Shown here in pieces: positions 18,197-28,762 of a stretch of DNA of 64,000 bases. Position 1 is the stretch's first letter, and each line of letters opens with the position of its first letter. Under the pieces are notes generated by a model. It did not search any database. It worked only from the letters and a program-made list of their open reading frames with translations, and was not told the DNA's origin. This DNA is from Vitreimonas sp. Lineage in GTDB: Bacteria > Patescibacteriota > Microgenomatia > UBA1400 > PJMF01. The position numbers and the translations under genes were made by a program. The stretch is from positions 135,269-199,268 of the forward strand of contig DASPLQ010000012.1 of the NCBI GenBank assembly GCA_035627515.1. Reading direction: 5' to 3'.

Positions 18197-18706
18197 ATGC
18201 TGACTCGCCTCCTCACTGCCCAAGATGGTGCCGAGTACCAACGGTTGCGCTTGCAATCTCTGGTGGCTGAGCCTGATAGCTTTCTGAGTGATATCAGCAG
18301 CGAAGAAGGTAAACATGAATCGAGCTTCGCCCTTGAGTTAGACTATGCTTACCACCCACCGTATTTTGGTTTTTTTGGGAGTTTTCAAGACGAGAAGCTA
18401 CTGGCATACTGCCAGGTCCAACGCTCCTTCACCGATAAGCAGATGCACATTGCTTTTCTTTATAACCTCTATGTTGATAAAGGCTATCGTGGTCAGGGAT
18501 ATGGCCGTGGTTTAATGAACCATGTTTTAGAGCTACTCAATTCACATGAACATATCGAGCGTATCTTTTTATCGTGTAACTCTAAAAATAAGTATGGTCT
18601 TCAGTTTTATAAAAAAATGGGTTTTCACCGCTGTGGGATTCGTCCCCGTAGCATCAAATGGCACGGCGTGTATGATGATGAAATCGAGATGGTGAAGGTG
18701 CTCTAA
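18197..18706 (+). CDS. GNAT-family N-acetyltransferase
   Basis: LYVDKGYRGQGYGRGLMNHVLE matches the acetyl-CoA-binding motif. Confidence 0.7.
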   Translation: MLTRLLTAQDGAEYQRLRLQSLVAEPDSFLSDISSEEGKHESSFALELDYAYHPPYFGFFGSFQDEKLLAYCQVQRSFTDKQMHIAFLYNLYVDKGYRGQGYGRGLMNHVLELLNSHEHIERIFLSCNSKNKYGLQFYKKMGFHRCGIRPRSIKWHGVYDDEIEMVKVL

Positions 18707-18724
18707 GGAAGGTTGGGTAGATTG

Positions 18725-18795
18725 TGGACTCACGGGGAATTGAACCCCGAACCTACCCATGCGAAGGGTATGTTATACCGTTTAACTATGAGCCC
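18725..18795 (-). tRNA. tRNA-Ala(CGC); no CCA is encoded
   Basis: The reverse complement gives GGGCTCATAG…TTCGCAT…GGTTCGGGGTTCAATTCCCCGTGAGTCCA. It carries the Ala identity pair G3:U70 and anticodon CGC. Confidence 0.8.
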
Positions 18796-18867
18796 TTTTT
18801 GGCTCGATTATTGTATCTTAGATAGGCTAAATTTGCAGCGACCGGCCTTGATCAATGGTGTACACTA

Positions 18868-19185
18868 ATGGGTATGTTTAACCTTTCACACTCTCCCGCC
18901 GAAAAAAAACTCCTCCAAGCACTTTTGACGCTGAAAACGGAAGCTGAAGTTAAAGATTTTCTGGTTGATTTACTCACCCCAGCTGAGTTAGAAGAGTTTG
19001 TCAAACGCTTCCAAATGGCTACTCTATTGTGGACCACCAAAAAATCATACTTGGAAATAGCTCAGGAAGTAGATACCAGTACTACCACGGTCACGCGCGT
19101 GGCCCGTTTCTTATTTAAAGAACCTTTCCAAGGTTACATGACAGCGCTCAAACGGTTATATCCAAAAATCAAACCTGCGCGGTAA
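18868..19185 (+). CDS. TrpR-related YerC/YecD-family DNA-binding protein
   Basis: LLTPAELEEFVKRFQ…SYLEIAQEVDTSTTTVTRVAR is an HTH of the YerC/YecD type. Confidence 0.6.
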   Translation: MGMFNLSHSPAEKKLLQALLTLKTEAEVKDFLVDLLTPAELEEFVKRFQMATLLWTTKKSYLEIAQEVDTSTTTVTRVARFLFKEPFQGYMTALKRLYPKIKPAR

Positions 19186-19192
19186 TTTTACC

Positions 19193-19630
19193 TCAAGCTA
19201 ATTTAAGGTGAGTTTTAATGGTTGTGATCTCATGGTCATGTTCATCGAGTTTATCGCGGTGTTTGGTGAGTTGGTGCACAATCACCGTTTGCTCTTCACG
19301 AATTGCCTGTAATTCCCCCATCACATCGGCAAAACGACCAATGGTTTCGGATCGAAAAGCCCTCATTTCGGATTTAAAGCTTTCTGCATCTGATTTAACT
19401 TCACTTATTTCTGTTTTTAATTCAGTACATAATTCTTGCAACTCTTTTTTAGTGGCAAACGTAGCTTTATTGATCTTATTCTGTTCATCAAACATCCGCT
19501 GGACACCCGTCAGAATGGCTTCGCTCATTTCAGCGCCAAAAGCAGTAAAACGCTCATCCAGAATTTCCTTGAGACGTTGCTCAGTGACATACTTAGTACG
19601 GGCAGTGGAAGATGATTTCTTGGTGGTCAT
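19193..19630 (-). CDS. Coiled-coil hypothetical protein
   Basis: A heptad-rich charged sequence with no catalytic motif. Confidence 0.45.
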   Translation of the reverse strand: MTTKKSSSTARTKYVTEQRLKEILDERFTAFGAEMSEAILTGVQRMFDEQNKINKATFATKKELQELCTELKTEISEVKSDAESFKSEMRAFRSETIGRFADVMGELQAIREEQTVIVHQLTKHRDKLDEHDHEITTIKTHLKLA

Positions 19631-19753
19631 CTGTCTTATTATAGCTAGAATTCTTTACTCTAGCTTTACTATAAGTAAGAAAGATTGATCAACTTTTTTG
19701 GCTCCAATTTAAGTCAAGTAGCAGTTAACTAAATATGTTATTGTATTAACATA

Positions 19754-19781
19754 TTGACATACAAATATTTCCAATTATAAT
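19754..19781 (+). promoter_or_regulatory. Sigma70-like promoter TTGACA-16-TATAAT. The predicted start site is ~7 nt downstream, which places the leader ORF ATG at or near the 5-prime end.
   Basis: Exact consensus hexamers are seen at 19754-59 and 19776-81. Confidence 0.4.
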
Positions 19782-19788
19782 ACACTTC

Positions 19789-19863
19789 ATGGTCAAGATA
19801 ACTAGTTCATCAATTGTTCATCATCACTCCCCTCTTTTCGCCGCGGGAGTTATTTTCGTATAA
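19789..19863 (+). CDS. Leader peptide MVKITSSSIVHHHSPLFAAGVIFV (24 aa) with three consecutive His codons (CAT CAT CAC)
   Basis: Translated directly. Its stop lies 23 nt before a terminator hairpin. His codons sit at 19819-19827. Confidence 0.5.
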   Translation: MVKITSSSIVHHHSPLFAAGVIFV

Positions 19864-19911
19864 AGTAAAATTAAAACACAGTACACCCCGCGCCGAGCGC
19901 GGGGTTTTTTT
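19826..19911 (+). promoter_or_regulatory. Transcription attenuator with four segments: 1 = ACUCCC (19826-31, overlapping the last His codon), 2 = GCGGGAGU (19843-50), 3 = CCCCGCG (19886-92), 4 = CGCGGGG (19898-904), followed by U7 (19905-11)
   Basis: Alternative pairings 1:2, 2:3 (CGCGGG:CCCGCG) and 3:4 (a 7-bp all-GC stem plus UUUUUUU) are seen in the sequence, 16 nt before the HAL start. Confidence 0.55.
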
Positions 19912-19927
19912 GTGCTGGAAAGGAAAA

Positions 19928-21445
19928 ATGATTATAAAAATAACTGGTAAAAACTTAACTATTGAACAAGTTAAAGCTGTAGCTCGTGACGGAGCCCAAG
20001 TCAAAATTGATCCCGAAGCTCTTAAACAGGTCGGTAAGGGTCGGAAAATCTTGGAATCATATGTGGCACGAGGAGAAAAAATCTATGGTGTTACCACCGG
20101 CTTTGGTGATTTTTCCAAAGTCTTTATTTCTCCGGTTGATGCTGCGCAACTGCAAACAAATTTGATTTTGAGCCACAATGCTGGGGTAGGTGAGCCGGTG
20201 CCAGAAGATGTCGTCCGCGCTACCATGCTCGCTCGAGCCAATTTCTTAGCCAGCGGCATGTCTGGCTGTCGTCCAATAGTGGTGGAAACATTAGTAGCAG
20301 CTCTCAACAACGGCCTCTACCCCTTTGTTCCCCAAAAGGGTTCTGTTGGCGCCAGTGGCGACCTAGCACCGTTAGCAGCTTTGGCTGCATGTTTGATGGG
20401 ACAAGGTCAAGCACTTATTAATAACCAAAAGGTGCCCTCTGTAGTGGCTTTACAAAAAATTGGCCTCCAACCCCTAGAACTGTCTTTTAAAGAAGGATTG
20501 GCATTGATTAATGGCGATACTTTGATGGTAGGTTATGCTGCCCTTCTGGTCTATGACGCACAACAACTATGCAAACTCTCGGACCTGGCAGTGAGCATGA
20601 CTCTTGAAAGCATTGTGGGCGTGATGGAAGCCTTTGATGACCGCTTACAAACCGCCCGCGGCTTTAAAGGCCAAGTACAAGCCGCTCAGAATATTCGCAC
20701 TCTCACTACTGGCAGTCAAATTCTCAACGGAGATCGTCAACGCATACAAGATAGTTATGTTATTCGATGTAGTCCAGTTATTCTCGGCGCTTCCCGCGAA
20801 GCCGTTGAGTTTGTGCGCCGTCAAACTGAGCTTGAGCTCAACGGAGCTTGCGACAACCCACTGGTATTTTTGGATGATGAAGTGGTGTTAGCCGGTGGCA
20901 ATTTTCATGGTCAACCGCTAGCTCTTCCGCTCGATTTTTTAAAGGTAGCAGTTTCGGAGCTTGCTAGCTCTTCAGAACGCCGCATGGAACGAATGCTCAA
21001 CAAGACATATTCTGGCTTACCAGCATTTTTAATTGAAAATGGTGGTCTAAACTCAGGCTTGATGGTGCCTCAATATACCGCTGCAGGCTTGATTAACCTT
21101 AATAAGGGCTTGAGCTGGCCTAATAGTGTGGATTCCACTCCGCTCTGCGCAGGCCAAGAAGACCACGTCTCGATGGGCACTAACTCAGCTCTCACAGCCT
21201 TTGAGGTTATTCAAAACACTCAATACGTAATAGCCATCGAACTCCTCATTGCTGCTCAGGCTTTGGAATTTCGCGAGCAACTGCCGAGCCCTGTCATTCA
21301 AAAAGTGAAAGCTTTGATCAGATCTAAAGTTCCCAAACTCACCCAGGACACTTCCTTGAACCCTGCCATTGAGATTCTGAGAGCTTGGGTCAAAGACGAA
21401 AAAATTATGAGGGTAATTGAAGTAGAGATTGGACCTTTGTTATGA
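19928..21445 (+). CDS. hutH: Histidine ammonia-lyase family MIO enzyme (HAL/PAL/aminomutase family)
   Basis: GSVGASGDLAPLA contains the Ala-Ser-Gly MIO triad. YGVTTGFGDF and SHNAGVGE motifs are also present. The start is at MIIKITGK. Confidence 0.8.
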   Translation: MIIKITGKNLTIEQVKAVARDGAQVKIDPEALKQVGKGRKILESYVARGEKIYGVTTGFGDFSKVFISPVDAAQLQTNLILSHNAGVGEPVPEDVVRATMLARANFLASGMSGCRPIVVETLVAALNNGLYPFVPQKGSVGASGDLAPLAALAACLMGQGQALINNQKVPSVVALQKIGLQPLELSFKEGLALINGDTLMVGYAALLVYDAQQLCKLSDLAVSMTLESIVGVMEAFDDRLQTARGFKGQVQAAQNIRTLTTGSQILNGDRQRIQDSYVIRCSPVILGASREAVEFVRRQTELELNGACDNPLVFLDDEVVLAGGNFHGQPLALPLDFLKVAVSELASSSERRMERMLNKTYSGLPAFLIENGGLNSGLMVPQYTAAGLINLNKGLSWPNSVDSTPLCAGQEDHVSMGTNSALTAFEVIQNTQYVIAIELLIAAQALEFREQLPSPVIQKVKALIRSKVPKLTQDTSLNPAIEILRAWVKDEKIMRVIEVEIGPLL

Positions 21446-22482
21446 AAAGGTATCAAGTTTGTTGTGCTGAATGCTCAGGTATCTATGAGGATCAGTGGTG
21501 GCTTTGCCCCAACTGTAACGGTAGTTTAATTATTCGTTACAACTCAGTGGAGGTTAAACCACAACTCCCAGCTTCCCTTTCTCTAGTCGACAAGTTAGGT
21601 GAAGGTCAAACTCCTCTCATATTTCTGGATTCACTTTCTCGCCAGTTGGGAGCACATATTTGGGCGAAGTGTGAGTTTCAAAACCCCACAGGTTCATTCA
21701 AAGATCGGGGCTCTGTAGTGGAAATAGCTAAAGCACTAGAGCTAAACAAAGCAGGTGTAGTTTGCGCTTCAACCGGCAACATGGCTGCTAGCTTAGCCGC
21801 CTATGCTGCCCGTAACCAACTCAAGTGTGTGGTGGTTGTGCCAGCCACCACCCCTGAGTCAAAACTGCAACAAGCGGTGGCATATGGAGCGTATCTGGAA
21901 ACCGTAGATGGTACCTATGATGATTGTGTGGCACACGCTCAAGGCTTAGCGATAAAGGGTAATTATTTTCTATGTGGAGACTACGTACTCAGGCGCGAGG
22001 GTCAAAAAAGCCTAGGGTGGGAACTAACAGGTAAAGCCTTTAGTGATATCGTCGTTCCTGTGGGTAATGGCACAGTGGGAATAGCAGTGATGCAAGGTTT
22101 AAGTGAGGCTGAGCCTTCTACGATGGCACGTTTCGTGGGTGTGCAAGCCATTACTGCTAATCCCATTGCTCAAGCCTGGCAAACAAAAACAACCATTAAG
22201 CCTCAACACAGTACTCTGACTATTGCTTCTGCTTTCAATGTGGGAAATCCACTCGATGGTAATTTGACGCTTCAATGGTTAGCTAAAACTGCGGGAACAA
22301 TGACAACGGTGAGCGATCAAGAAATTATTGCTGCTCAACAATTACTTGCTCAAACTGAAGGTTTATATGTAGAAAGTGCAGCTGCCAGCACAGTCGCTGC
22401 TCTTTTCAAAATGAGATCACAACTCAGTAATAAAAAAATAGCCCTGATTTTAACAGGCAGTGGGTTGAAGGAAAGGAGGTGA
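21442..22482 (+). CDS. Threonine-synthase-like PLP-dependent (fold type II) enzyme with an N-terminal Cys4 zinc ribbon
   Basis: CAECSG…CPNCNG ribbon. The PLP-lysine motif FKDRGS is present. A 4-nt ATGA overlap links it to the HAL stop. Confidence 0.7.
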   Translation: MKRYQVCCAECSGIYEDQWWLCPNCNGSLIIRYNSVEVKPQLPASLSLVDKLGEGQTPLIFLDSLSRQLGAHIWAKCEFQNPTGSFKDRGSVVEIAKALELNKAGVVCASTGNMAASLAAYAARNQLKCVVVVPATTPESKLQQAVAYGAYLETVDGTYDDCVAHAQGLAIKGNYFLCGDYVLRREGQKSLGWELTGKAFSDIVVPVGNGTVGIAVMQGLSEAEPSTMARFVGVQAITANPIAQAWQTKTTIKPQHSTLTIASAFNVGNPLDGNLTLQWLAKTAGTMTTVSDQEIIAAQQLLAQTEGLYVESAAASTVAALFKMRSQLSNKKIALILTGSGLKERR

Positions 22483-22487
22483 TATAT

Positions 22488-22685
22488 ATGACAGAAAGAA
22501 TTATTTTTATTGACCGCATTCCCGATGGGGGCGCGCCAGTCATTACTAATGCTGCTGAGTTAGCTTACTTACTCGAAGAGCTAGCAGAAGACGCGACAGC
22601 ATCGGCTACCCAACCTCTCCCCCGCTTTATTGGAGAAGGTATAGGTGCACCGGAGTTTAAGGTGAAAGCGCCTAACGAGAAATAA
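22488..22685 (+). CDS. Small acidic hypothetical protein (65 aa) with a perfect SD, AAGGAGGTGA
   Basis: The SD AGGAGGT sits 7 nt before the ATG. The ORF follows the ThrC-like gene directly. A stable hairpin lies at 22695-22719. Confidence 0.5.
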   Translation: MTERIIFIDRIPDGGAPVITNAAELAYLLEELAEDATASATQPLPRFIGEGIGAPEFKVKAPNEK

Positions 22686-22758
22686 TTTTCTCAAGCCGGG
22701 AGCTTGATCACCTCCCGGCAGGGATCTCTAACAGTGTTACAATCAAAAAAGCCAAGCT

Positions 22759-22893
22759 ATGCCAGCCTCCCTCACTATTCTCTATCCGCTTCATCCAGAT
22801 CGCTGGACAGAATATAAAGCTTTGCGCTTGGAAAAAGAGTTGAATATGAATGGGCAGTTCTATGACTCAGTGTTAATGGAGTTATTTATATGA
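22759..22893 (+). CDS. Micro-ORF (44 aa, MPASLTILYPLHPDRWTEYKALRLEKELNMNGQFYDSVLMELFI) with an ATGA overlap onto the next gene
   Basis: Translated manually. The stop overlaps the start of the M29-like gene, which indicates translational coupling. It is below the 60-aa ORF track cutoff. Confidence 0.35.
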   Translation: MPASLTILYPLHPDRWTEYKALRLEKELNMNGQFYDSVLMELFI

Positions 22894-23894
22894 AGGTGGT
22901 CGAGAAACTAAGTGACGCAGAAAAAATTCGTGACTTAACCACAAGAGAACGTGAGTTGGGTTTAAAAATTTTGCAGACTAACCTTGCCTACCAACCCGGC
23001 GAGCGAATCCTGATCGTGACTGACACTCAGAAGCGTGATCAGGCGGCTGCGGTGTGGTTTGAGTCGGCTAAATTGTTACCCAAGCTCGGTGGTTTAGAAC
23101 TAATCACCATCGATGACATGCTGATCAATGGTGAAGAGCCACCAGCTGAAGTGATTGCAGCGGGCAAAACAGCTCACATTTTATTGCTTCACACCACCAA
23201 GTCTTTGACCCATACCGGTGTCAGCAAGACCGCTCGTGCTGGCGGGGCTAAGGTGGCTAGTTTGCCTGGTGTGTCATATGAAATTATGATGCAGACTTTG
23301 ACGTTAGAATATCAGCCCATTCGCGAGCTCGGTGAGCAACTTAAAGCTGTGGTAGAAAAAGGCACCACGCTGACGGTTACTTCTCCAGCTGGGACGCACC
23401 TGACCGCTAACATCCGGCAAAACTGGGTGGAAAATGACTGCGGCTTTGTGGCGCCAGGTGAGATCACCAATTTACCCGCCGGCGAGATCTTTTTTGCCCC
23501 TCTCGAAGGGACCACCACTGGGACCTGGGTGGTAGATGGCTCGATTGCCAGTGACACGCTTGATGAGCCGATTGTGATTACCATTGAGGCTGGCCGGGCG
23601 GTGAATATTGAGGGTGGCGCCGCAGCCGGGAGGCTGCAAGCCACCCTAGAAAAAGTAGGACCACTGGCGTTTAGTGTCGCTGAAATTGGCATTGGTACCA
23701 ATAGCTCCGCGTCAGGAACGGCATCATTGATTGAAGCCGAAAAAGCTGCCGGCACTGCCCATCTCGCCCTCGGCAACAACAGCGTCATTGGTGGCAGCAT
23801 CAACGTCCCCGTTCATATCGATGGTGTGACGCTCTCACCTACTATCGCAGTCGATGGTCGAATCATCTTAGAAAATCAACGTTTTATCATTTAA
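22890..23894 (+). CDS. M29 (aminopeptidase T/AmpS)-like aminopeptidase
   Basis: Family-level resemblance. GTAHLALGN and VHIDGV correspond to the conserved His and His-x-Asp metal ligands. The length is ~334 aa. Confidence 0.45.
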   Translation: MKVVEKLSDAEKIRDLTTRERELGLKILQTNLAYQPGERILIVTDTQKRDQAAAVWFESAKLLPKLGGLELITIDDMLINGEEPPAEVIAAGKTAHILLLHTTKSLTHTGVSKTARAGGAKVASLPGVSYEIMMQTLTLEYQPIRELGEQLKAVVEKGTTLTVTSPAGTHLTANIRQNWVENDCGFVAPGEITNLPAGEIFFAPLEGTTTGTWVVDGSIASDTLDEPIVITIEAGRAVNIEGGAAAGRLQATLEKVGPLAFSVAEIGIGTNSSASGTASLIEAEKAAGTAHLALGNNSVIGGSINVPVHIDGVTLSPTIAVDGRIILENQRFII

Positions 23895-23916
23895 AATACA
23901 CATACTTAAGGAATCT

Positions 23917-25158
23917 ATGCAAAATCAAGTTCAAACTTTAAAAGGCTTCCGGGATCTCTTGCCTGCTGACAAGCGCAAGCGCGATTACGTAGCCGCTAAA
24001 ATCAAAACTGTCTTTGAACGCTTCGGCTTCGAACCACTCGAAACGCCGACCTTGGAATATGCCTCGCTATTGCTCGGCAAGTATGGTGAAGAAGCTGATA
24101 AACTTGTTTACACTTTTGAAGATCGTGGTGAGCGCCAAATTGGGTTGCGCTACGACCAAACCGTGCCCACTGCCCGCGTGCTGGCTCAATATCAAAATGA
24201 TCTCCCCCGTTACTTCCGCCGTTATCAAATCCAAAATGTCTTCCGCGCCGACAAGCCACAAAAAGGTCGCTTCCGTGAGTTTACACAATGTGACTGCGAC
24301 ATTTTTGGCAGTACCGCCTCCCTCGCTGATGCAGAAATTTTAGCCGTTTATTATGCTGTCTATAAAGACCTCGGTATCACTTCCATTCAAATTCAAATCA
24401 ATGATCGTCAAACATTGCTGTCTACTTTATCGCCTTTTGCTACCGACCAAGTTTCGGTTTTTTCACTAGTTCAGTCGATCGACAAATTAGACAAACAAAC
24501 AGCCGATGAAGTCGCTACCGAACTAACAGCGAAAGGACTGAGTCTAGAAGCTTCCAAACAAGTTTTGTCCGAAATTGAAAAAGCTGACATGTCAGCTAAT
24601 TTAAGTGAAATTGTCGACAATGCTATCAAACTCGGTGTAGCTCGCGAAGCACTCGTCTTTAACCCGAAATTGGCACGTGGTTTGGATTATTATACCGGCT
24701 TGATTTTTGAAGGTCGGATTCCTGAATATGCCGTCGGTTCGGTAGGCGGCGGTGGCCGTTATGACAAATTAGTCGGCGAGTTATCCGGTTTAGAAATGCC
24801 GGCTGTGGGCTTTGGAATTGGCTTTGATCGAACGGTAGAAGCTGCTGATGAGCTCGGGCTGATCCCTGCTGAAAATATGGGGACGCAAGTTTTGGTAACT
24901 GTCTTTGATAACGCTTATCTCTCGGATTCTTTAACCACTGCCAACCAATTAAGAACCGCGGGTGTGAAAGTCGAGCTCTACCCTGCTGTAGATAAACTAG
25001 CCAAACAATTCAAACTCGCTGACCAAAAAAACATCCCTTGGGTGGTGATCATTGGAGAGGCTGAAGCGGCTGACAATAAAGTCACGCTGAAAAATATGAA
25101 GACTGGTGAGCAGCAATTGATGTCAATGGATGAAGTTGTCGGTTTGGTATTAGGATAG
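23917..25158 (+). CDS. hisS: Histidyl-tRNA synthetase
   Basis: Class II motifs (GLRYDQTVP, FRADKPQKGRFREF, GGGGRYDKL) and a C-terminal anticodon-binding domain. Confidence 0.9.
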   Translation: MQNQVQTLKGFRDLLPADKRKRDYVAAKIKTVFERFGFEPLETPTLEYASLLLGKYGEEADKLVYTFEDRGERQIGLRYDQTVPTARVLAQYQNDLPRYFRRYQIQNVFRADKPQKGRFREFTQCDCDIFGSTASLADAEILAVYYAVYKDLGITSIQIQINDRQTLLSTLSPFATDQVSVFSLVQSIDKLDKQTADEVATELTAKGLSLEASKQVLSEIEKADMSANLSEIVDNAIKLGVAREALVFNPKLARGLDYYTGLIFEGRIPEYAVGSVGGGGRYDKLVGELSGLEMPAVGFGIGFDRTVEAADELGLIPAENMGTQVLVTVFDNAYLSDSLTTANQLRTAGVKVELYPAVDKLAKQFKLADQKNIPWVVIIGEAEAADNKVTLKNMKTGEQQLMSMDEVVGLVLG

Positions 25159-25581
25159 GGTAGCTCTACCTTATCTCGTTAGCAAAATCCGTCATCTAAA
25201 GTTTACATTTTTTTATGAATGTGTAACTTTTAAATGACAATTTCTGGTGACAATACATGTGGCAAGCGACTAATTAAAAGCGCTTTTCCTCTTAAGGTAA
25301 GTGACAACTTATGTCATTGTGTCAGTGAGAGAGTCTTTTGTTGAGCTCATGTTTTTTCCCTTGTATGAATATTGGCAAAAATCATACAAACTCAAGAAAG
25401 TTCACTTCTTGAGCAGCACTATCAAACAAAAAAGATAAGCCCCTTTTTGAGCGCCTATTAATGAACCTTCTTAAAAGGCCTTTCAGTTATCCGCCTCGCC
25501 TTAGCTCTTACTGCGATTATCAACAAAAATGCCACATGTCACAAGAAGTTTAGTTTTTGATAGAGATGTGGTGACTAGCCC

Positions 25582-26196
25582 CTACCTCTTAAAGTACTCT
25601 ACTTTGTAGAAATCAATCCCCGCCGCTTGGGCGGCACCGGCGTCAGCGGAGCTATCACCAATCATCAAAAAGTCTTCCAGGCTAATATCCTTATTAGCCC
25701 CTACTTCATCTGCCACTTCTTCAAAAATTAACTCAAAGCCATCAGGCACCGGTTTCACAAACTGGACCATATTTTTGCTGATTACAGCCTGAAAATACTG
25801 CGCCAGATCTTCTTTACGTAAGACGCGGTTAATCGTATCGGTACAGTTGGATGACCATACAAAGCAAGTATAGGCTTGGCTAGCGGTGCGAATAAACTCA
25901 ATCAATTCAGGATTAACGGTATAACCCTCATCATACTCGCGCTCAAACTCCTCTGCCCACTCCATGCTTGGTTCATGGACGATTTCGCCAAATTTCTCCA
26001 CAAAAATATTCACCAAACTCATCACATTCATCTCTTTGGTCTTCATATTCACCAGCTCAGGATCAAATTTTTTCAAAATCTCTAATTGCCGCTCAATGAA
26101 AATCCCCCACGGCAAATGTAACTTGGCGATAGTTTCATCGAAATCAAAAATTAAATATTTTTTAGGCTGTGCCTTAAGGTGTTCGAGTAATGACAT
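25582..26196 (-). CDS. HAD-superfamily hydrolase
   Basis: FDFDETI (DxD motif), a conserved Lys and a GDSSADAGAAQAAG motif IV. Confidence 0.7.
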   Translation of the reverse strand: MSLLEHLKAQPKKYLIFDFDETIAKLHLPWGIFIERQLEILKKFDPELVNMKTKEMNVMSLVNIFVEKFGEIVHEPSMEWAEEFEREYDEGYTVNPELIEFIRTASQAYTCFVWSSNCTDTINRVLRKEDLAQYFQAVISKNMVQFVKPVPDGFELIFEEVADEVGANKDISLEDFLMIGDSSADAGAAQAAGIDFYKVEYFKR

Positions 26197-28762
26197 AACT
26201 TTTTTTAGTAACTTCCTCTGCTAACGGCATGATTAAACTTACCGCCAATAATACACCAATCAACTGCCACTGCAAATTAGCCATCCCTACCCAGTGAGGA
26301 ATGACTTTCACTAATACAAACCAAGCAACGACCACACTGACCAGCGCCCAGTTCATCAGCCAATTACTCAACCAACCATACTCCAGCACTGAGCGAGTAA
26401 AACTCCGCGCCGTCAAACCACGCAAGGCTTTCTGAAAAATATATAACGTAAACGTACCAGTCTGAGCGATGACCAAGCCTTGTGGCAATAACCAATAAAA
26501 AACACCTGCTAACGCTAGTGTCGAAATCACACCTTGAATGGCAATTCCTCGTAAAATCTGCGGCGATAAGATTGAAGGATGTAACTCGTTAATTTTTTTG
26601 GCAATCAACTCTGGATCTTCAGGCTCAACGGCCATCGCCATCGCCGGTAAGGCATCAGTTAACAAATTGATCATCAAAATCATCACCGCTGTGAGCGGCA
26701 CCGGCCAATCGAATAAAACTGCCAGAAAAAACAAGCCCACCTGGCATGTATTACCAGAAAGTAAGTAATGTAAATACAGCTGAGTACGCAACTTTACAGT
26801 CCTGCCCACACTGACGGCTTTCAATAAAGCATCATACATGCCAGTAATCACCACATCAGCGATGTCCTTAGTCAAACCCGTCCCGTTATTCATGGCAATG
26901 CCAATATTAGCTTTCTTCAAGGCAGCGGCATCATTAATCCCGTCCCCTGCCATCGCCACTTGATACCCTTGCTGTTGATAAAAATCCACTAGTAAGACCT
27001 TATGTTCCGGCCGCACCCGAGCAAAAACCCGAGCAGCTTGCAACTTAGCTCGGTTATCACTCAAAGCAGTTTTAGTGAGAATTTGATCAAGCTCGGTGCC
27101 AGTTAAAACTTGAGCCTTAGAGCGGCGTGTAATAATCCCGGCTTGCTCGGCGATATAACGAGCAATAGCTGGATGATCACCCGTGATCATGATCGGCACG
27201 ATACCAGCCCGGTGGAAACCCGCTACCGTCTCTTTGACCGTAGGTCGCAAAGGATCCATCAGGGCAATTAACCCAACAAAGCATAAGCTACTCTCACCCA
27301 GATCGCGATTTTTTATGGCCCCGGGAGGTGTCGGCGTGCGCTCCGCCAACGCCAGAACTCGGAAACCCTGACCCGCTAGCTCCTCTGCCTTTTTCAACAT
27401 CGCCGTTTTTTCACGCTCAGTAAAGCTAGACACTGTCCGCTTCATTTCAGTGTCACAAAGGGGAATCAAGATATCCGGTGCGCCCTTGCTAAACAAGTGT
27501 AAATTTCCCTGGTGCTGCCGAATCACACTCATTCGCTTGGCATCACTGGTAAAGCGATGTTCCACTTTCCGACCTTCTAGTTCATAACTAAACCCATGTG
27601 ATTCAATGAAAGCCACTAAGGCTTGTTCTGTGGGGCCTTTGTTATTGTTACAAAAACGAATCACATCTATTAGTTCTTTATAGCCAGCTTGTTTTTTTAG
27701 TTTAGGATCAGCGACGTCAAATAAGGTATTATTGACCACCACTTTACAGACACGCATCACCCCTTCCGTGACCGTACCAGTCTTATCCGTGGCGACGTGC
27801 GTCACCGATCCCAACCCCTCAGCCGCCAACAATTTTTTGACAATGACCTTCTTACGGACCATCTCTGCCACCGCCAAAGCCAGTGCTGTAGTCATGACCG
27901 CACTCAAACCTTCCGGAATAAAGGCAATCGCCAGAGAGGTCGTCACCAATAGTGATTCAATCAATGGCTTGCCACGGTATAAATAGACCGCCAAAATAAT
28001 GGCTACGCTAACCATGGTAATAATTAATAAAAACCGACCTACTTTTTCGAGTTCCTTTTGCAAGGGAGTCAGCTCTTGTTCGGCTTGGTTGAGATAGGTA
28101 GCTATTTTGCCCACCTCGGTCTCAACTCCTGTTTTAACCACAATGGCTCGCGCCGAGCCTTGGACTACTACCGTCCCGGCAAATAATAAACTTTTTTGAT
28201 CACCAAGCGGCGCGGTTTTGGCAACAGGGGCAGTCTGTTTAGAGACGGGTAAAGATTCACCAGTCAGCGCGGCTTCATCGCTGAGCACTTCATCAGCTTC
28301 GATAACGCGTGCATCGGCGGCAATTAAATCGCCTTCCTGTAGCAATATGATGTCACCAGGCACTAAGGTATCACTGCTGACTTCGATAGCTTTGCCTTGC
28401 GAAAGAACGGTAGTGAACGGTGTTTGTAAGGACTTTAATTGCTCAAGTGATTTTTCAGATTGTTTCTCCAAAAAAATGCCAATGCCTGCCATCACCACCA
28501 CGATGCCATAGACGAGCCCAGCTTCTAACCAACTCCCCGTCACTGCTGAAACTGTGGCCGTGGCCAGCAATAACAATACAATCGGATTAGAAAATTGTTC
28601 TTTCAGACTGTCGAGTAAAGAACTGCCTTCGGGCTCTGGTAAGGCATTAGGTCCGTATTGGGTTAAACGGTGAGCTCGTTCCGTTGGAGTAAGGCCTTGG
28701 GAGGGTTTGGTGGCAAAAAGCTTGGTAACTTGCGCTATGGTGAGAGCATGAGGATGTGACAT
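26174..28762 (-). CDS. P-type cation-transporting ATPase (P2-type, Ca2+/Mg2+-like)
   Basis: DKTGTVT, TGDHPAIA and GDGINDAAALKKANIGIAM motifs, with 10 TM segments. Confidence 0.9.
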   Translation of the reverse strand: MSHPHALTIAQVTKLFATKPSQGLTPTERAHRLTQYGPNALPEPEGSSLLDSLKEQFSNPIVLLLLATATVSAVTGSWLEAGLVYGIVVVMAGIGIFLEKQSEKSLEQLKSLQTPFTTVLSQGKAIEVSSDTLVPGDIILLQEGDLIAADARVIEADEVLSDEAALTGESLPVSKQTAPVAKTAPLGDQKSLLFAGTVVVQGSARAIVVKTGVETEVGKIATYLNQAEQELTPLQKELEKVGRFLLIITMVSVAIILAVYLYRGKPLIESLLVTTSLAIAFIPEGLSAVMTTALALAVAEMVRKKVIVKKLLAAEGLGSVTHVATDKTGTVTEGVMRVCKVVVNNTLFDVADPKLKKQAGYKELIDVIRFCNNNKGPTEQALVAFIESHGFSYELEGRKVEHRFTSDAKRMSVIRQHQGNLHLFSKGAPDILIPLCDTEMKRTVSSFTEREKTAMLKKAEELAGQGFRVLALAERTPTPPGAIKNRDLGESSLCFVGLIALMDPLRPTVKETVAGFHRAGIVPIMITGDHPAIARYIAEQAGIITRRSKAQVLTGTELDQILTKTALSDNRAKLQAARVFARVRPEHKVLLVDFYQQQGYQVAMAGDGINDAAALKKANIGIAMNNGTGLTKDIADVVITGMYDALLKAVSVGRTVKLRTQLYLHYLLSGNTCQVGLFFLAVLFDWPVPLTAVMILMINLLTDALPAMAMAVEPEDPELIAKKINELHPSILSPQILRGIAIQGVISTLALAGVFYWLLPQGLVIAQTGTFTLYIFQKALRGLTARSFTRSVLEYGWLSNWLMNWALVSVVVAWFVLVKVIPHWVGMANLQWQLIGVLLAVSLIMPLAEEVTKKSYVITRTP

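Follow-up and report, generated by a model that had tools for sequence, protein, structure and literature searches.

A ribosome-mediated leader-peptide attenuator that senses the supply of charged tRNA-His very probably controls hutH, the gene for histidine ammonia-lyase (HAL), in a bacterium of the candidate phyla radiation (CPR, Patescibacteria). The element lies on a 64-kb stretch of contig DASPLQ010000012.1, deposited as 'Vitreimonas sp.'; this whole stretch is called the window below, and positions given without a locus name refer to it. A preliminary description of the DNA had proposed a his/trp-type attenuator reading tandem His codons, and the proposal is supported here by RNA folding, by conservation of the leader upstream of both hutH and the histidyl-tRNA synthetase (HisRS) gene hisS, by a match to an independently trained covariance model and by the CPR lineage of the host. 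CPR bacteria have very small genomes with few recognised regulators and are mostly uncultivated, and full-text literature searches on attenuation, leader peptides and HAL in CPR or Saccharibacteria returned no report of such an element or regulon in these bacteria. The principle of his/trp-type attenuation is already known, and the CPR element belongs to no curated family; what is new is a His attenuator in CPR with a probably leaderless open reading frame (ORF), a HisR-type partner, a nested second terminator in relatives and unusual target genes. The parts of the element are as follows.

19754-19781, + strand: sigma-70-type promoter, TTGACA at 19754-19759, 16-nt spacer, TATAAT at 19776-19781 (12/12 consensus positions)
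19789-19863, + strand: leader ORF of 24 codons plus TAA (19861-19863), ATG at 19789, encoding MVKITSSSIVHHHSPLFAAGVIFV
19819-19827, + strand: regulatory codons CAU CAU CAC, His 11-13 of the leader, read from the sequence
19826-19831, + strand: segment 1, ACUCCC, overlapping the last His codon; the pairing partner of segment 2
19838-19850, + strand: segment 2, UCGCCGCGGGAGU (GCGGGAGU at 19843-19850), whose 3′ GGGAGU pairs with segment 1 and whose 5′ UCG-c-CGCGGG pairs with segment 3 and the terminator loop
19885-19911, + strand: intrinsic terminator, with segment 3 ACCCCGCGC (19885-19893), loop CGA, segment 4 GCGCGGGGU (19897-19905) and a U7 run to 19911
19928-21445, + strand: hutH, histidine ammonia-lyase, 505 amino acids, the first controlled gene (TIGR01225, 581 bits versus a cut-off of 539)

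The promoter is the consensus TTGACA-16-TATAAT noted in the preliminary description, and an 8-kb scan (18500-26500) found no second site matching at all 12 positions. The 24-codon ORF with its three consecutive His codons is likewise present as described, with the histidines at codons 11-13. Its ATG lies 7 nt past the -10 box, and a Shine-Dalgarno sequence is absent. Comparison with related leaders, introduced below, revealed the same 7-nt spacing in 9 of the 14 tabulated, a spacing of 8-10 nt in three (L106, L109 and L117) and one of ~28 nt in the L006/L114 subgroup, with a Shine-Dalgarno sequence in none of them. Because of this short spacing and the lack of a Shine-Dalgarno sequence, we consider it probable that the leader ORF is translated from a transcript that is leaderless or almost so. 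A near-leaderless start had been called unusual, but it is a conserved feature of the family and has precedents in Actinobacteria. Among the 549 short ATG ORFs (10-45 codons) of the window, two contain HHH, and the other one sits inside a gene.

Folding of the leader yielded the four segments and the 1:2, 2:3 and 3:4 pairings proposed for it, with some changes in detail. Both the centroid and the local minimum-free-energy structures contain the 1:2 hairpin, in which ACUCCC at 19826-31 pairs with GGGAGU at 19845-50 (ΔG -7.8 kcal/mol). The 2:3 antiterminator joins UCG-c-CGCGGG (19838-47) to CCCGCG-c-CGA (19887-96) with a ΔG of -13.9 kcal/mol; the CGCGGG:CCCGCG pairing first named as the antiterminator is thus its core, and the full helix is longer. 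The terminator, with a ΔG of -18.1 kcal/mol, is the top-ranked terminator-like site in the 8-kb scan, and its U7 run, which had been noted correctly, ends 16 nt ahead of the hutH start; its stem has 9 base pairs, 8 of them GC, rather than 7 that are all GC. Segments 1 and 2 are separated by 11 nt, not 12, and the leader stop codon precedes the terminator stem by 21 nt, not 23. Counted from the leader start, the His codons occupy nt 31-39, segment 1 nt 38-43 and segment 2 nt 50-62, and the stop codon is at nt 73.

This arrangement suggests how the switch would operate. Transcription would start ~7 nt past the -10 box, at or within a few nucleotides of the leader AUG. When His-tRNA(His) is ample, the ribosome would reach the UAA at 19861 and either cover segment 2 or let it re-pair with segment 1, the 3:4 hairpin and U7 run would form, and RNA polymerase would stop at ~19911. 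When His-tRNA(His) is scarce, the ribosome would stall at codons 11-13 and cover segment 1 (19826-31) but not segment 2 (19838-50), which would then pair with segment 3 and the terminator loop (19887-96) and block the terminator, allowing read-through into hutH, a thrC-like gene and a small ORF and probably onward into an M29-like gene and hisS. In the absence of a ribosome, the 1:2 and 3:4 hairpins would form. By textbook ribosome footprints, a ribosome waiting with its A site on a His codon occupies segment 1 and leaves segment 2 free, and one that has reached the stop codon occupies segment 2; the geometry of the leader therefore fits only the classical logic, in which read-through would occur when charged tRNA-His is scarce. 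We infer the transcription start, the stalling and the response in vivo from these positions and pairings.

The design recurs across related bacteria. We read the regions upstream of HAL in 18 distinct related loci on Saccharibacteria-like and Microgenomates-like contigs, each designated by an L number; the orthologous HAL genes of the leader-bearing loci are 60-78% identical, and a scan of a metagenome collection found just one further close locus, L060. Upstream of HAL, a promoter is followed by a short ORF carrying tandem His codons and by a terminator in L002, L003, L004, L006, L060, L106 and L109-L115, the same loci for which a 1:2 hairpin and a 2:3 antiterminator are reported; in L106 the leader stands upstream of a hisG-like gene that precedes HAL. 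At the equivalent place, ~17 related leaders carry HH, HHxH, HHH or HHHH with synonymous CAU/CAC changes, and the His codons, which adjoin or fall within segment 1 throughout the family, are retained inside and outside that segment alike. Outside the His run the peptide sequence varies, as seen in L060 (MLITDVQNQVSHHHHATSGVI), L110 (MLEKKMQNKSMHHHHATSGVI), L111 (MLNKNVQIIFAHHTHATSGVI), L002 (MLNICVQNKANHHNLTNLVG), L114 (MKRILKENQQNHHNLAKAGLEL), L006 (MEAQILTVNNKNLDHHVPLTAGLALM) and L003 (MFKLTSQHHAHILPERRG); the shared C-terminal residues AG and GV arise because the GCGGGG RNA segment is read in different frames. The 5′ half of the leader is conserved as an ORF, in its length, start codon and His codons, and not as an RNA fold, and otherwise varies freely.

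The alternative helices recur as well. Nine leaders make up a core group in which segment 1 (AUCACCaCGC) is built from the His codons themselves and is complementary to segment 2 (GCGgGGUGAU). Their stop codon lies 1 nt past segment 2, and segment 3, AUCAUCCCGCU, can pair with segment 2 over 11 base pairs or with segment 4 (AGCGGG followed by U6). The stop codon overlaps segment 2 in L002 and in the second L006 leader (L006b), and in 14 of 15 resolved leaders it either overlaps segment 2 or lies at most 23 nt after the part of it that pairs in the 2:3 helix (L003 is unclear). The 2:3 helices of the relatives have energies of -12 to -26 kcal/mol, and in 10 of 12 leaders the helix is better than in shuffled sequences at p ≤ 0.013. 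The recurrence of the His-rich peptide and of the GC helices upstream of HAL and hisS homologues, named beforehand as a check on the proposal, was therefore observed, with the His codons kept and the helices exchanged while remaining complementary.

The informative co-variation, as judged from these sequences, lies between subfamilies, in which the helices have been rewritten and their complementarity retained. Alignment of divergent members to the model was too imprecise in helix 1:2 for pair counting, and the helices were tabulated locus by locus instead. In the second leader of L114, which lies directly before hisS and encodes MTGKSVNNHHHKTKLKTAGLSVCGF, all four segments read CCAGC/GCUGG in place of the CCCGC/GCGGG found elsewhere. 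L117, the closest relative, has the same synteny as the window and a leader peptide, MLVTVSTSVVHHHSPLQPWE, with a run of three histidines (...VVHHHSPL...). It is identical to the window in segment 1 (CACUCCC) and in the 3′ part of segment 2 (GGGAGU), but its terminator differs (CUCCC-ACCC-GGGAG followed by U8), and segment 2 has changed to match in its 5′ part, GUGGGAG, which is complementary to CUCCCAC, as against CGCGGG:CCCGCG in the window. By this comparison the antiterminator co-varies within the window's own sublineage.

A covariance model, R1, was built from the nine core leaders with the window left out. R1 matched the window at 19789-19911, from the start of the ORF to the end of the U-run, with 35 bits and E = 2.5e-4 in 576 kb, and gave no other match in the window and none in 24 non-CPR HAL loci (L007-L030). 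It also matched L114 and L006, each in two copies, and L115 and L117. R1-type leaders stand ahead of hisS operons in L114 (11867-11997), L006 (5112-5211) and L117 (7230-7351), and a leader before hisS places the element at an expected target for a sensor of His-tRNA charging.

Several observations weigh against this interpretation. Three of the related loci that we read, L001, L104 and L108, have no leader upstream of HAL. The His run of L113 is H-Q-S-H (H-x-x-H), and the Roizmanbacteria-like L115 (5889-5999) combines the four-segment design with a single His codon (...FFHQTS...); its terminator U-run extends into the HAL start codon. The sensor of L115 may have changed or decayed. The L003 antiterminator is no better than shuffles, and the antiterminator of the window is marginal by the same test (-13.9 versus -9.2 ± 2.6 kcal/mol, p = 0.05) and weaker than the terminator with which it competes (-13.9 versus -18.1 kcal/mol). 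A ribosome at the window stop codon covers CGCGGG only partly by textbook footprint sizes. Among nine close leaders, in which 93-95% of alignment cells are paired, each state shows one compensatory pair and the count does not exceed that in shuffles; pair counting finds almost no covariation here because the core-group helices are nearly invariant. The first controlled gene, hutH, encodes a histidine-degrading enzyme and offers no evident rationale for induction when histidine is scarce.

Folding with masking, which the preliminary description had suggested, belongs partly among these points. With segment 1 masked, the full-length leader at equilibrium still favors the terminator, and the folding was therefore redone on a transcript ending before segment 4, with masking up to 12 nt beyond the first His codon; the 2:3 helix forms in this shortened RNA. 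Since the full-length RNA favors the terminator at equilibrium, the switch must be kinetic, as it is in classical systems.

We also considered explanations other than leader-peptide attenuation. It is very unlikely that antitermination here is independent of translation and relies on a T-box, a HutP-like protein or a new histidine riboswitch. Bacillus hutH is controlled by HutP antitermination, and alternative terminator and antiterminator helices are typical of T-box, HutP and riboswitch mechanisms alike. T-box control of hisS and his genes also occurs in Firmicutes and some Actinobacteria (PMC9413887). Nevertheless, an Rfam search of the whole window at the gathering threshold returned two tRNAs only, neither T-box RF00230 nor any other riboswitch matched the leader at that threshold or up to E = 10, and nine related loci contained no leader family, T-box or riboswitch. 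The leader, at ~123 nt, is too short for a T-box; it contains a single UAG and no run of NAG at 4-nt spacing of the kind relevant to HutP, and none of the neighboring ORFs examined gave a Pfam HutP match, those upstream being a YerC-like gene and a coiled-coil ORF. The Bacillus system has hutP ahead of hutH and, in its leader RNA, two sets of three NAG triplets spaced by 4 nt. Conservation of the 5′ half of the leader as an ORF and not as a fold speaks against all three mechanisms.

A slightly smaller likelihood attaches to the idea that the element is a stand-alone gene for a small RNA or small protein, with hutH expressed by unregulated leak-through and with the His codons and the 2:3 pairing incidental. 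A consensus promoter, a transcript of ~123 nt and a strong terminator do resemble a small-RNA unit, and a permissive Rfam scan of 19600-20000, in which every match was sub-threshold, gave the small RNA anti-hemB as its best match at 28 bits against a cut-off of 49.5. That match is carried mainly by the terminator hairpin, as are the weak Rfam matches generally, and the same scan gave the Phe, Leu, His and Trp leaders 16-23 bits. The 16 nt between the U-run and the hutH start leave no room for a further promoter, lineages retain the His codons, the length of the ORF and the placement of its stop codon with respect to segment 2, and the 2:3 complementarity survives replacement of the terminator, all of which a stand-alone small gene leaves unexplained.

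Sensing of free histidine by a nascent peptide, as in TnaC, is less probable again. Histidine would in this case stall the ribosome and induce hutH when it is abundant, which would resolve the paradox of a catabolic target, and TnaC has 24 residues, the same size as the window leader. The peptide is not conserved outside its His run, however; a ribosome arrested on or close to the stop codon would mask segment 2 and so favor the terminator; termination here is intrinsic and not Rho-dependent; and the same type of leader drives hisS, which excess histidine should not induce. The possibility that a promoter-like site, a short ORF with His codons and a terminator came together by chance, which the preliminary description had allowed for in the His triplet, can be set aside almost entirely: HHH at its frequency among short window ORFs is not vanishingly rare, and the window by itself is no more than suggestive, but ~18 related Patescibacteria loci keep the design and R1, trained independently, finds the window element, which makes chance untenable.

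Ribosome-mediated attenuation thus places the CPR leader beside several known systems. Like the enterobacterial his leader (RF00514) and trp attenuators, it has a short ORF whose tandem regulatory codons overlap segment 1, a choice between 1:2 with 3:4 and 2:3 pairing, a terminator just before the first structural gene and a predicted switch-on at low levels of the cognate charged tRNA. It shares no sequence or model homology with the enterobacterial his leader: the RF00514 His_leader model scores 19.7 bits against a cut-off of 49, and the leader is not a member of that family though it would work alike. The E. coli his leader has 7 His codons, whereas the CPR leaders have 2-4. The CPR system further differs from the enterobacterial one in that the window ORF lacks a Shine-Dalgarno sequence and probably lies at the 5′ end of the transcript, in its targets, hutH, a thrC-like gene and hisS rather than histidine biosynthesis genes, in its CPR host, and in the second, nested terminator that many CPR relatives add.

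Further parallels come from comparative genomics and from Actinobacteria. Candidate His attenuators in the Bacillus cereus group, Peptostreptococcaceae and Erysipelotrichales (Ashniev et al. 2022, PMC9413887) resemble the CPR design in having 3-5 consecutive His codons immediately before attenuator, antiterminator and terminator hairpins. These Firmicutes attenuators control his biosynthesis operons or a histidine transporter in genomes without HisR (PMC9413887), unlike the CPR attenuator, which coexists with a HisR-type gene and a candidate operator and has hutH, a thrC-like gene and hisS as its targets. Leaderless short-ORF attenuators occur in Actinobacteria as mycobacterial polycysteine short ORFs (bioRxiv 10.1101/834739) and as Corynebacterium glutamicum leader peptides (PMC3890552). 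In these elements, as in the CPR leader, the short ORF lies at or near the 5′ end of the transcript, stalling at tandem codons remodels the downstream RNA, and several loci share the same sensor in what has been called a 'ribulon'; the CPR start in this comparison is placed by promoter spacing. The output differs, since the mycobacterial elements (bioRxiv 10.1101/834739) expose a sequestered ribosome-binding site and the CPR output is an intrinsic terminator.

Many of the relatives carry more than one terminator-like structure. In the core group (L060 5913-5990, with equivalents in L002, L004, L106 and L109-L113) an outer helix, ACAGUCAUC ... GAUGACUGU, encloses the first terminator; a U6-U8 run comes after this outer helix, which has the look of a second terminator. 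Formation of the 2:3 antiterminator would disable this one too, because the 5′ arm of the outer helix would then lie in the antiterminator loop. The window has a vestige of such a helix, AGUACA at 19880-85 with UGUGCU at 19911-16.

Upstream of the leader, two further features point to a second layer of control.

18868-19185, + strand: TrpR-family YerC/YecD (HisR-type) regulator (Pfam Trp_repressor 7.7e-18; TIGR02531 yecD_yerC, 47.1 versus 42.2 bits)
19732-19755, no strand assigned: inverted repeat AATATGTTA-ttgtat-TAACATATT, a candidate HisR-like operator with perfect 9-bp arms that overlaps the -35 box by 2 nt

The NCBI name of the upstream gene is also YerC/YecD, and such a gene accompanies the leader in nearly all of the related loci, a TrpR-like gene standing just upstream of it in L002, L004, L060, L106 and L109-L117; a divergent coiled-coil ORF also lies upstream of the window leader. 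The palindrome (c)ATGTTA-N6-TAACAT(g) is found at the same position in L004, L106, L109, L110, L111 and L117, which makes seven loci with the window, and L006 and L114 have a related palindrome between the -10 box and the leader ORF. In E. coli, the trp operon combines the TrpR repressor with attenuation. We consider it probable, by analogy with that operon, that the CPR leader is under dual control by a repressor and an attenuator; the HisR/YerC-type repressor would probably add a histidine-dependent layer through the palindrome at the -35 box. YerC has been identified as HisR, a histidine repressor whose binding to 20-bp palindromic operators is stimulated by histidine in vitro (PMC9413887). 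The candidate operator resembles the HisR and TrpR operators described there in its 20-bp palindromic architecture, but its consensus, (c)ATGTTA-N6-TAACAT(g), departs from the cacTTTA-N6-TAAAgtg published for HisR (PMC9413887). As in HisR regulons, a YerC/YecD gene lies beside the presumed target and a palindrome of ~20 bp at the promoter; the targets differ, since known HisR regulons comprise his biosynthesis and uptake genes, with one hutH-linked paralogue mentioned (PMC9413887).

Downstream of hutH, the unit predicted to be under the control of the leader comprises the following genes.

21442-22482, + strand: ThrC-like pyridoxal-phosphate enzyme, 346 amino acids, whose start overlaps the hutH stop by 4 nt (Pfam PALP; TIGR00260 thrC, 172.8 versus 167.1 bits)
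22488-22685, + strand: small ORF, 65 amino acids, with a strong Shine-Dalgarno sequence (AAGGAGGTGA) and the motif GEGxGAPE (no family match)
22890-23894, + strand: M29/NicX-like protein, 334 amino acids, possibly an aminopeptidase (weak Pfam Peptidase_M29 match, 26.9 bits versus a cut-off of 27)
23917-25158, + strand: hisS, histidyl-tRNA synthetase, 413 amino acids, probably the last gene of the unit (TIGR00442, 399.9 versus 286.75 bits)

The HAL protein shows the ASG (MIO) triad and the Ser-His selectivity pair in an alignment with PDB structures. HAL and a divergent ThrC-like gene are always paired, in the window and in L002-L006, L060 and L104-L116; the best PDB match of the ThrC-like enzyme is the threonine synthase 6cgq (E = 7.6e-48), and the ThrC-like gene is translationally coupled to hutH. 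In the window and most relatives HAL comes first, and the ThrC-like gene is usually followed in turn by a small ORF carrying GEGxGAPE. The small ORF matches no Pfam or NCBIfam family, and its motif LPxxYxGEGxGAPEaK is common to small ORFs at the same position in L106, L108, L110 and L112.

Whether the unit extends to hisS turns on a 204-nt non-coding gap (22686-22889) between the small ORF and the M29-like gene. The gap contains a GC-rich hairpin of 8 bp, GCCGGGAG/CUCCCGGC, at 22695-22719 that is not followed by a U-run, and an R1 search found no second His leader in 22686-22889. Three stops separate the small ORF from the M29-like ORF, which shares its reading frame. The L117 leader is followed by a 102-amino-acid ORF, an orthologue of the M29-like protein (49% identity to that of the window) and hisS, with no HAL or ThrC-like gene, and hisS lies downstream of the HAL-PALP pair in L104, L114 and L116 and directly under a His leader in L114, L006 and L117. 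Co-transcription through to the window hisS is plausible from this gene order, and is supported because the L117 leader drives the M29-like gene and hisS directly; the inclusion of HisRS in the controlled unit, asserted in the preliminary description, therefore has the synteny in its favor, while the gap and its hairpin leave co-transcription in the window at that level. A 267-amino-acid ORF between the second L006 leader and hisS, which was considered as a further M29-like gene, proved unrelated to it.

The first target raises the main question, which is the role of HAL and the ThrC-like enzyme in a histidine-limitation regulon. Since hutH is catabolic, its induction by histidine starvation is paradoxical, and yet the attenuator and the HisR-type repressor, read by analogy with their known counterparts, both predict expression under histidine limitation. 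The HAL cassette is repeatedly linked to hisS, tRNA-His, a hisG-like gene, an M29-like peptidase and an ABC transporter. One speculative and rather doubtful resolution is that the cassette belongs to a CPR histidine-limitation regulon, or 'His ribulon', and not to a catabolic pathway, and serves to obtain histidine, either through a reverse HAL reaction that uses scavenged urocanate and ammonia and whose product HisRS would draw off or through some other chemistry of the ThrC-like enzyme or HAL. A literature search on the reversibility of HAL yielded nothing usable. If the proposal were true, the presence of HAL and a ThrC-like enzyme beside hisS and tRNA-His could reveal an unrecognised histidine salvage chemistry. 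A conserved attenuator of this kind would in any event imply that transcription and translation remain tightly coupled in CPR bacteria and that a classical circuit for sensing amino acids is retained, and the R1 signature could serve as a marker for genes switched on at limiting histidine in bacteria presumed to depend on external amino acids.

The assignment of the window to CPR rests on its proteins and gene order. Three proteins of the window are entered at NCBI as HYD34607, HYD34609 and HYD34614 in a record labelled 'Vitreimonas sp.', an alphaproteobacterial name. The nearest named relatives of HAL and HisRS are from Candidatus Saccharibacteria, 'Pacebacteria' and 'Patescibacteria group', with more distant ones from Roizman-, Levy- and Gottesmanbacteria; the GC content of the window is ~45%; and the order DnaB, metallo-beta-lactamase-fold gene, Glucodextran_B, ..., YerC-like, ..., hisS, EamA is common to the window and those CPR contigs. 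Because the HAL and HisRS relatives, the GC content and the gene order all mismatch the label, we assign the window organism on these sequence grounds to CPR/Patescibacteria and regard the public label as apparently wrong, in line with the CPR-like lineage that had been suspected from the DNA.

Related loci also carry other histidine-linked genes near HAL. A tRNA-His(GUG) lies immediately upstream of HAL in L104 (5888-5960) and L116 (5881-5956), with hisS downstream of the same cluster; a divergent hisG-like gene occurs in L106 and L108, where NCBIfam models give the L106 ORF no match and the L108 ORF a score short of the cut-off; an SsuA-type ABC transporter occurs in L114; and the L115 operon also has RidA and urocanase. 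In L116, 5580-5880 contains a divergent 32-codon ORF ending in ...SLHHTLN, upstream of the tRNA-His and HAL. The ORF is followed by the helices CUCAAC/GUUGAG, GAGCGGAUU/AAUCCUCUC and AAUCCU/AGGAUU, the last with a U-run. R1 does not detect this element, which may be a further version of the attenuator built from helices wholly unlike the others.

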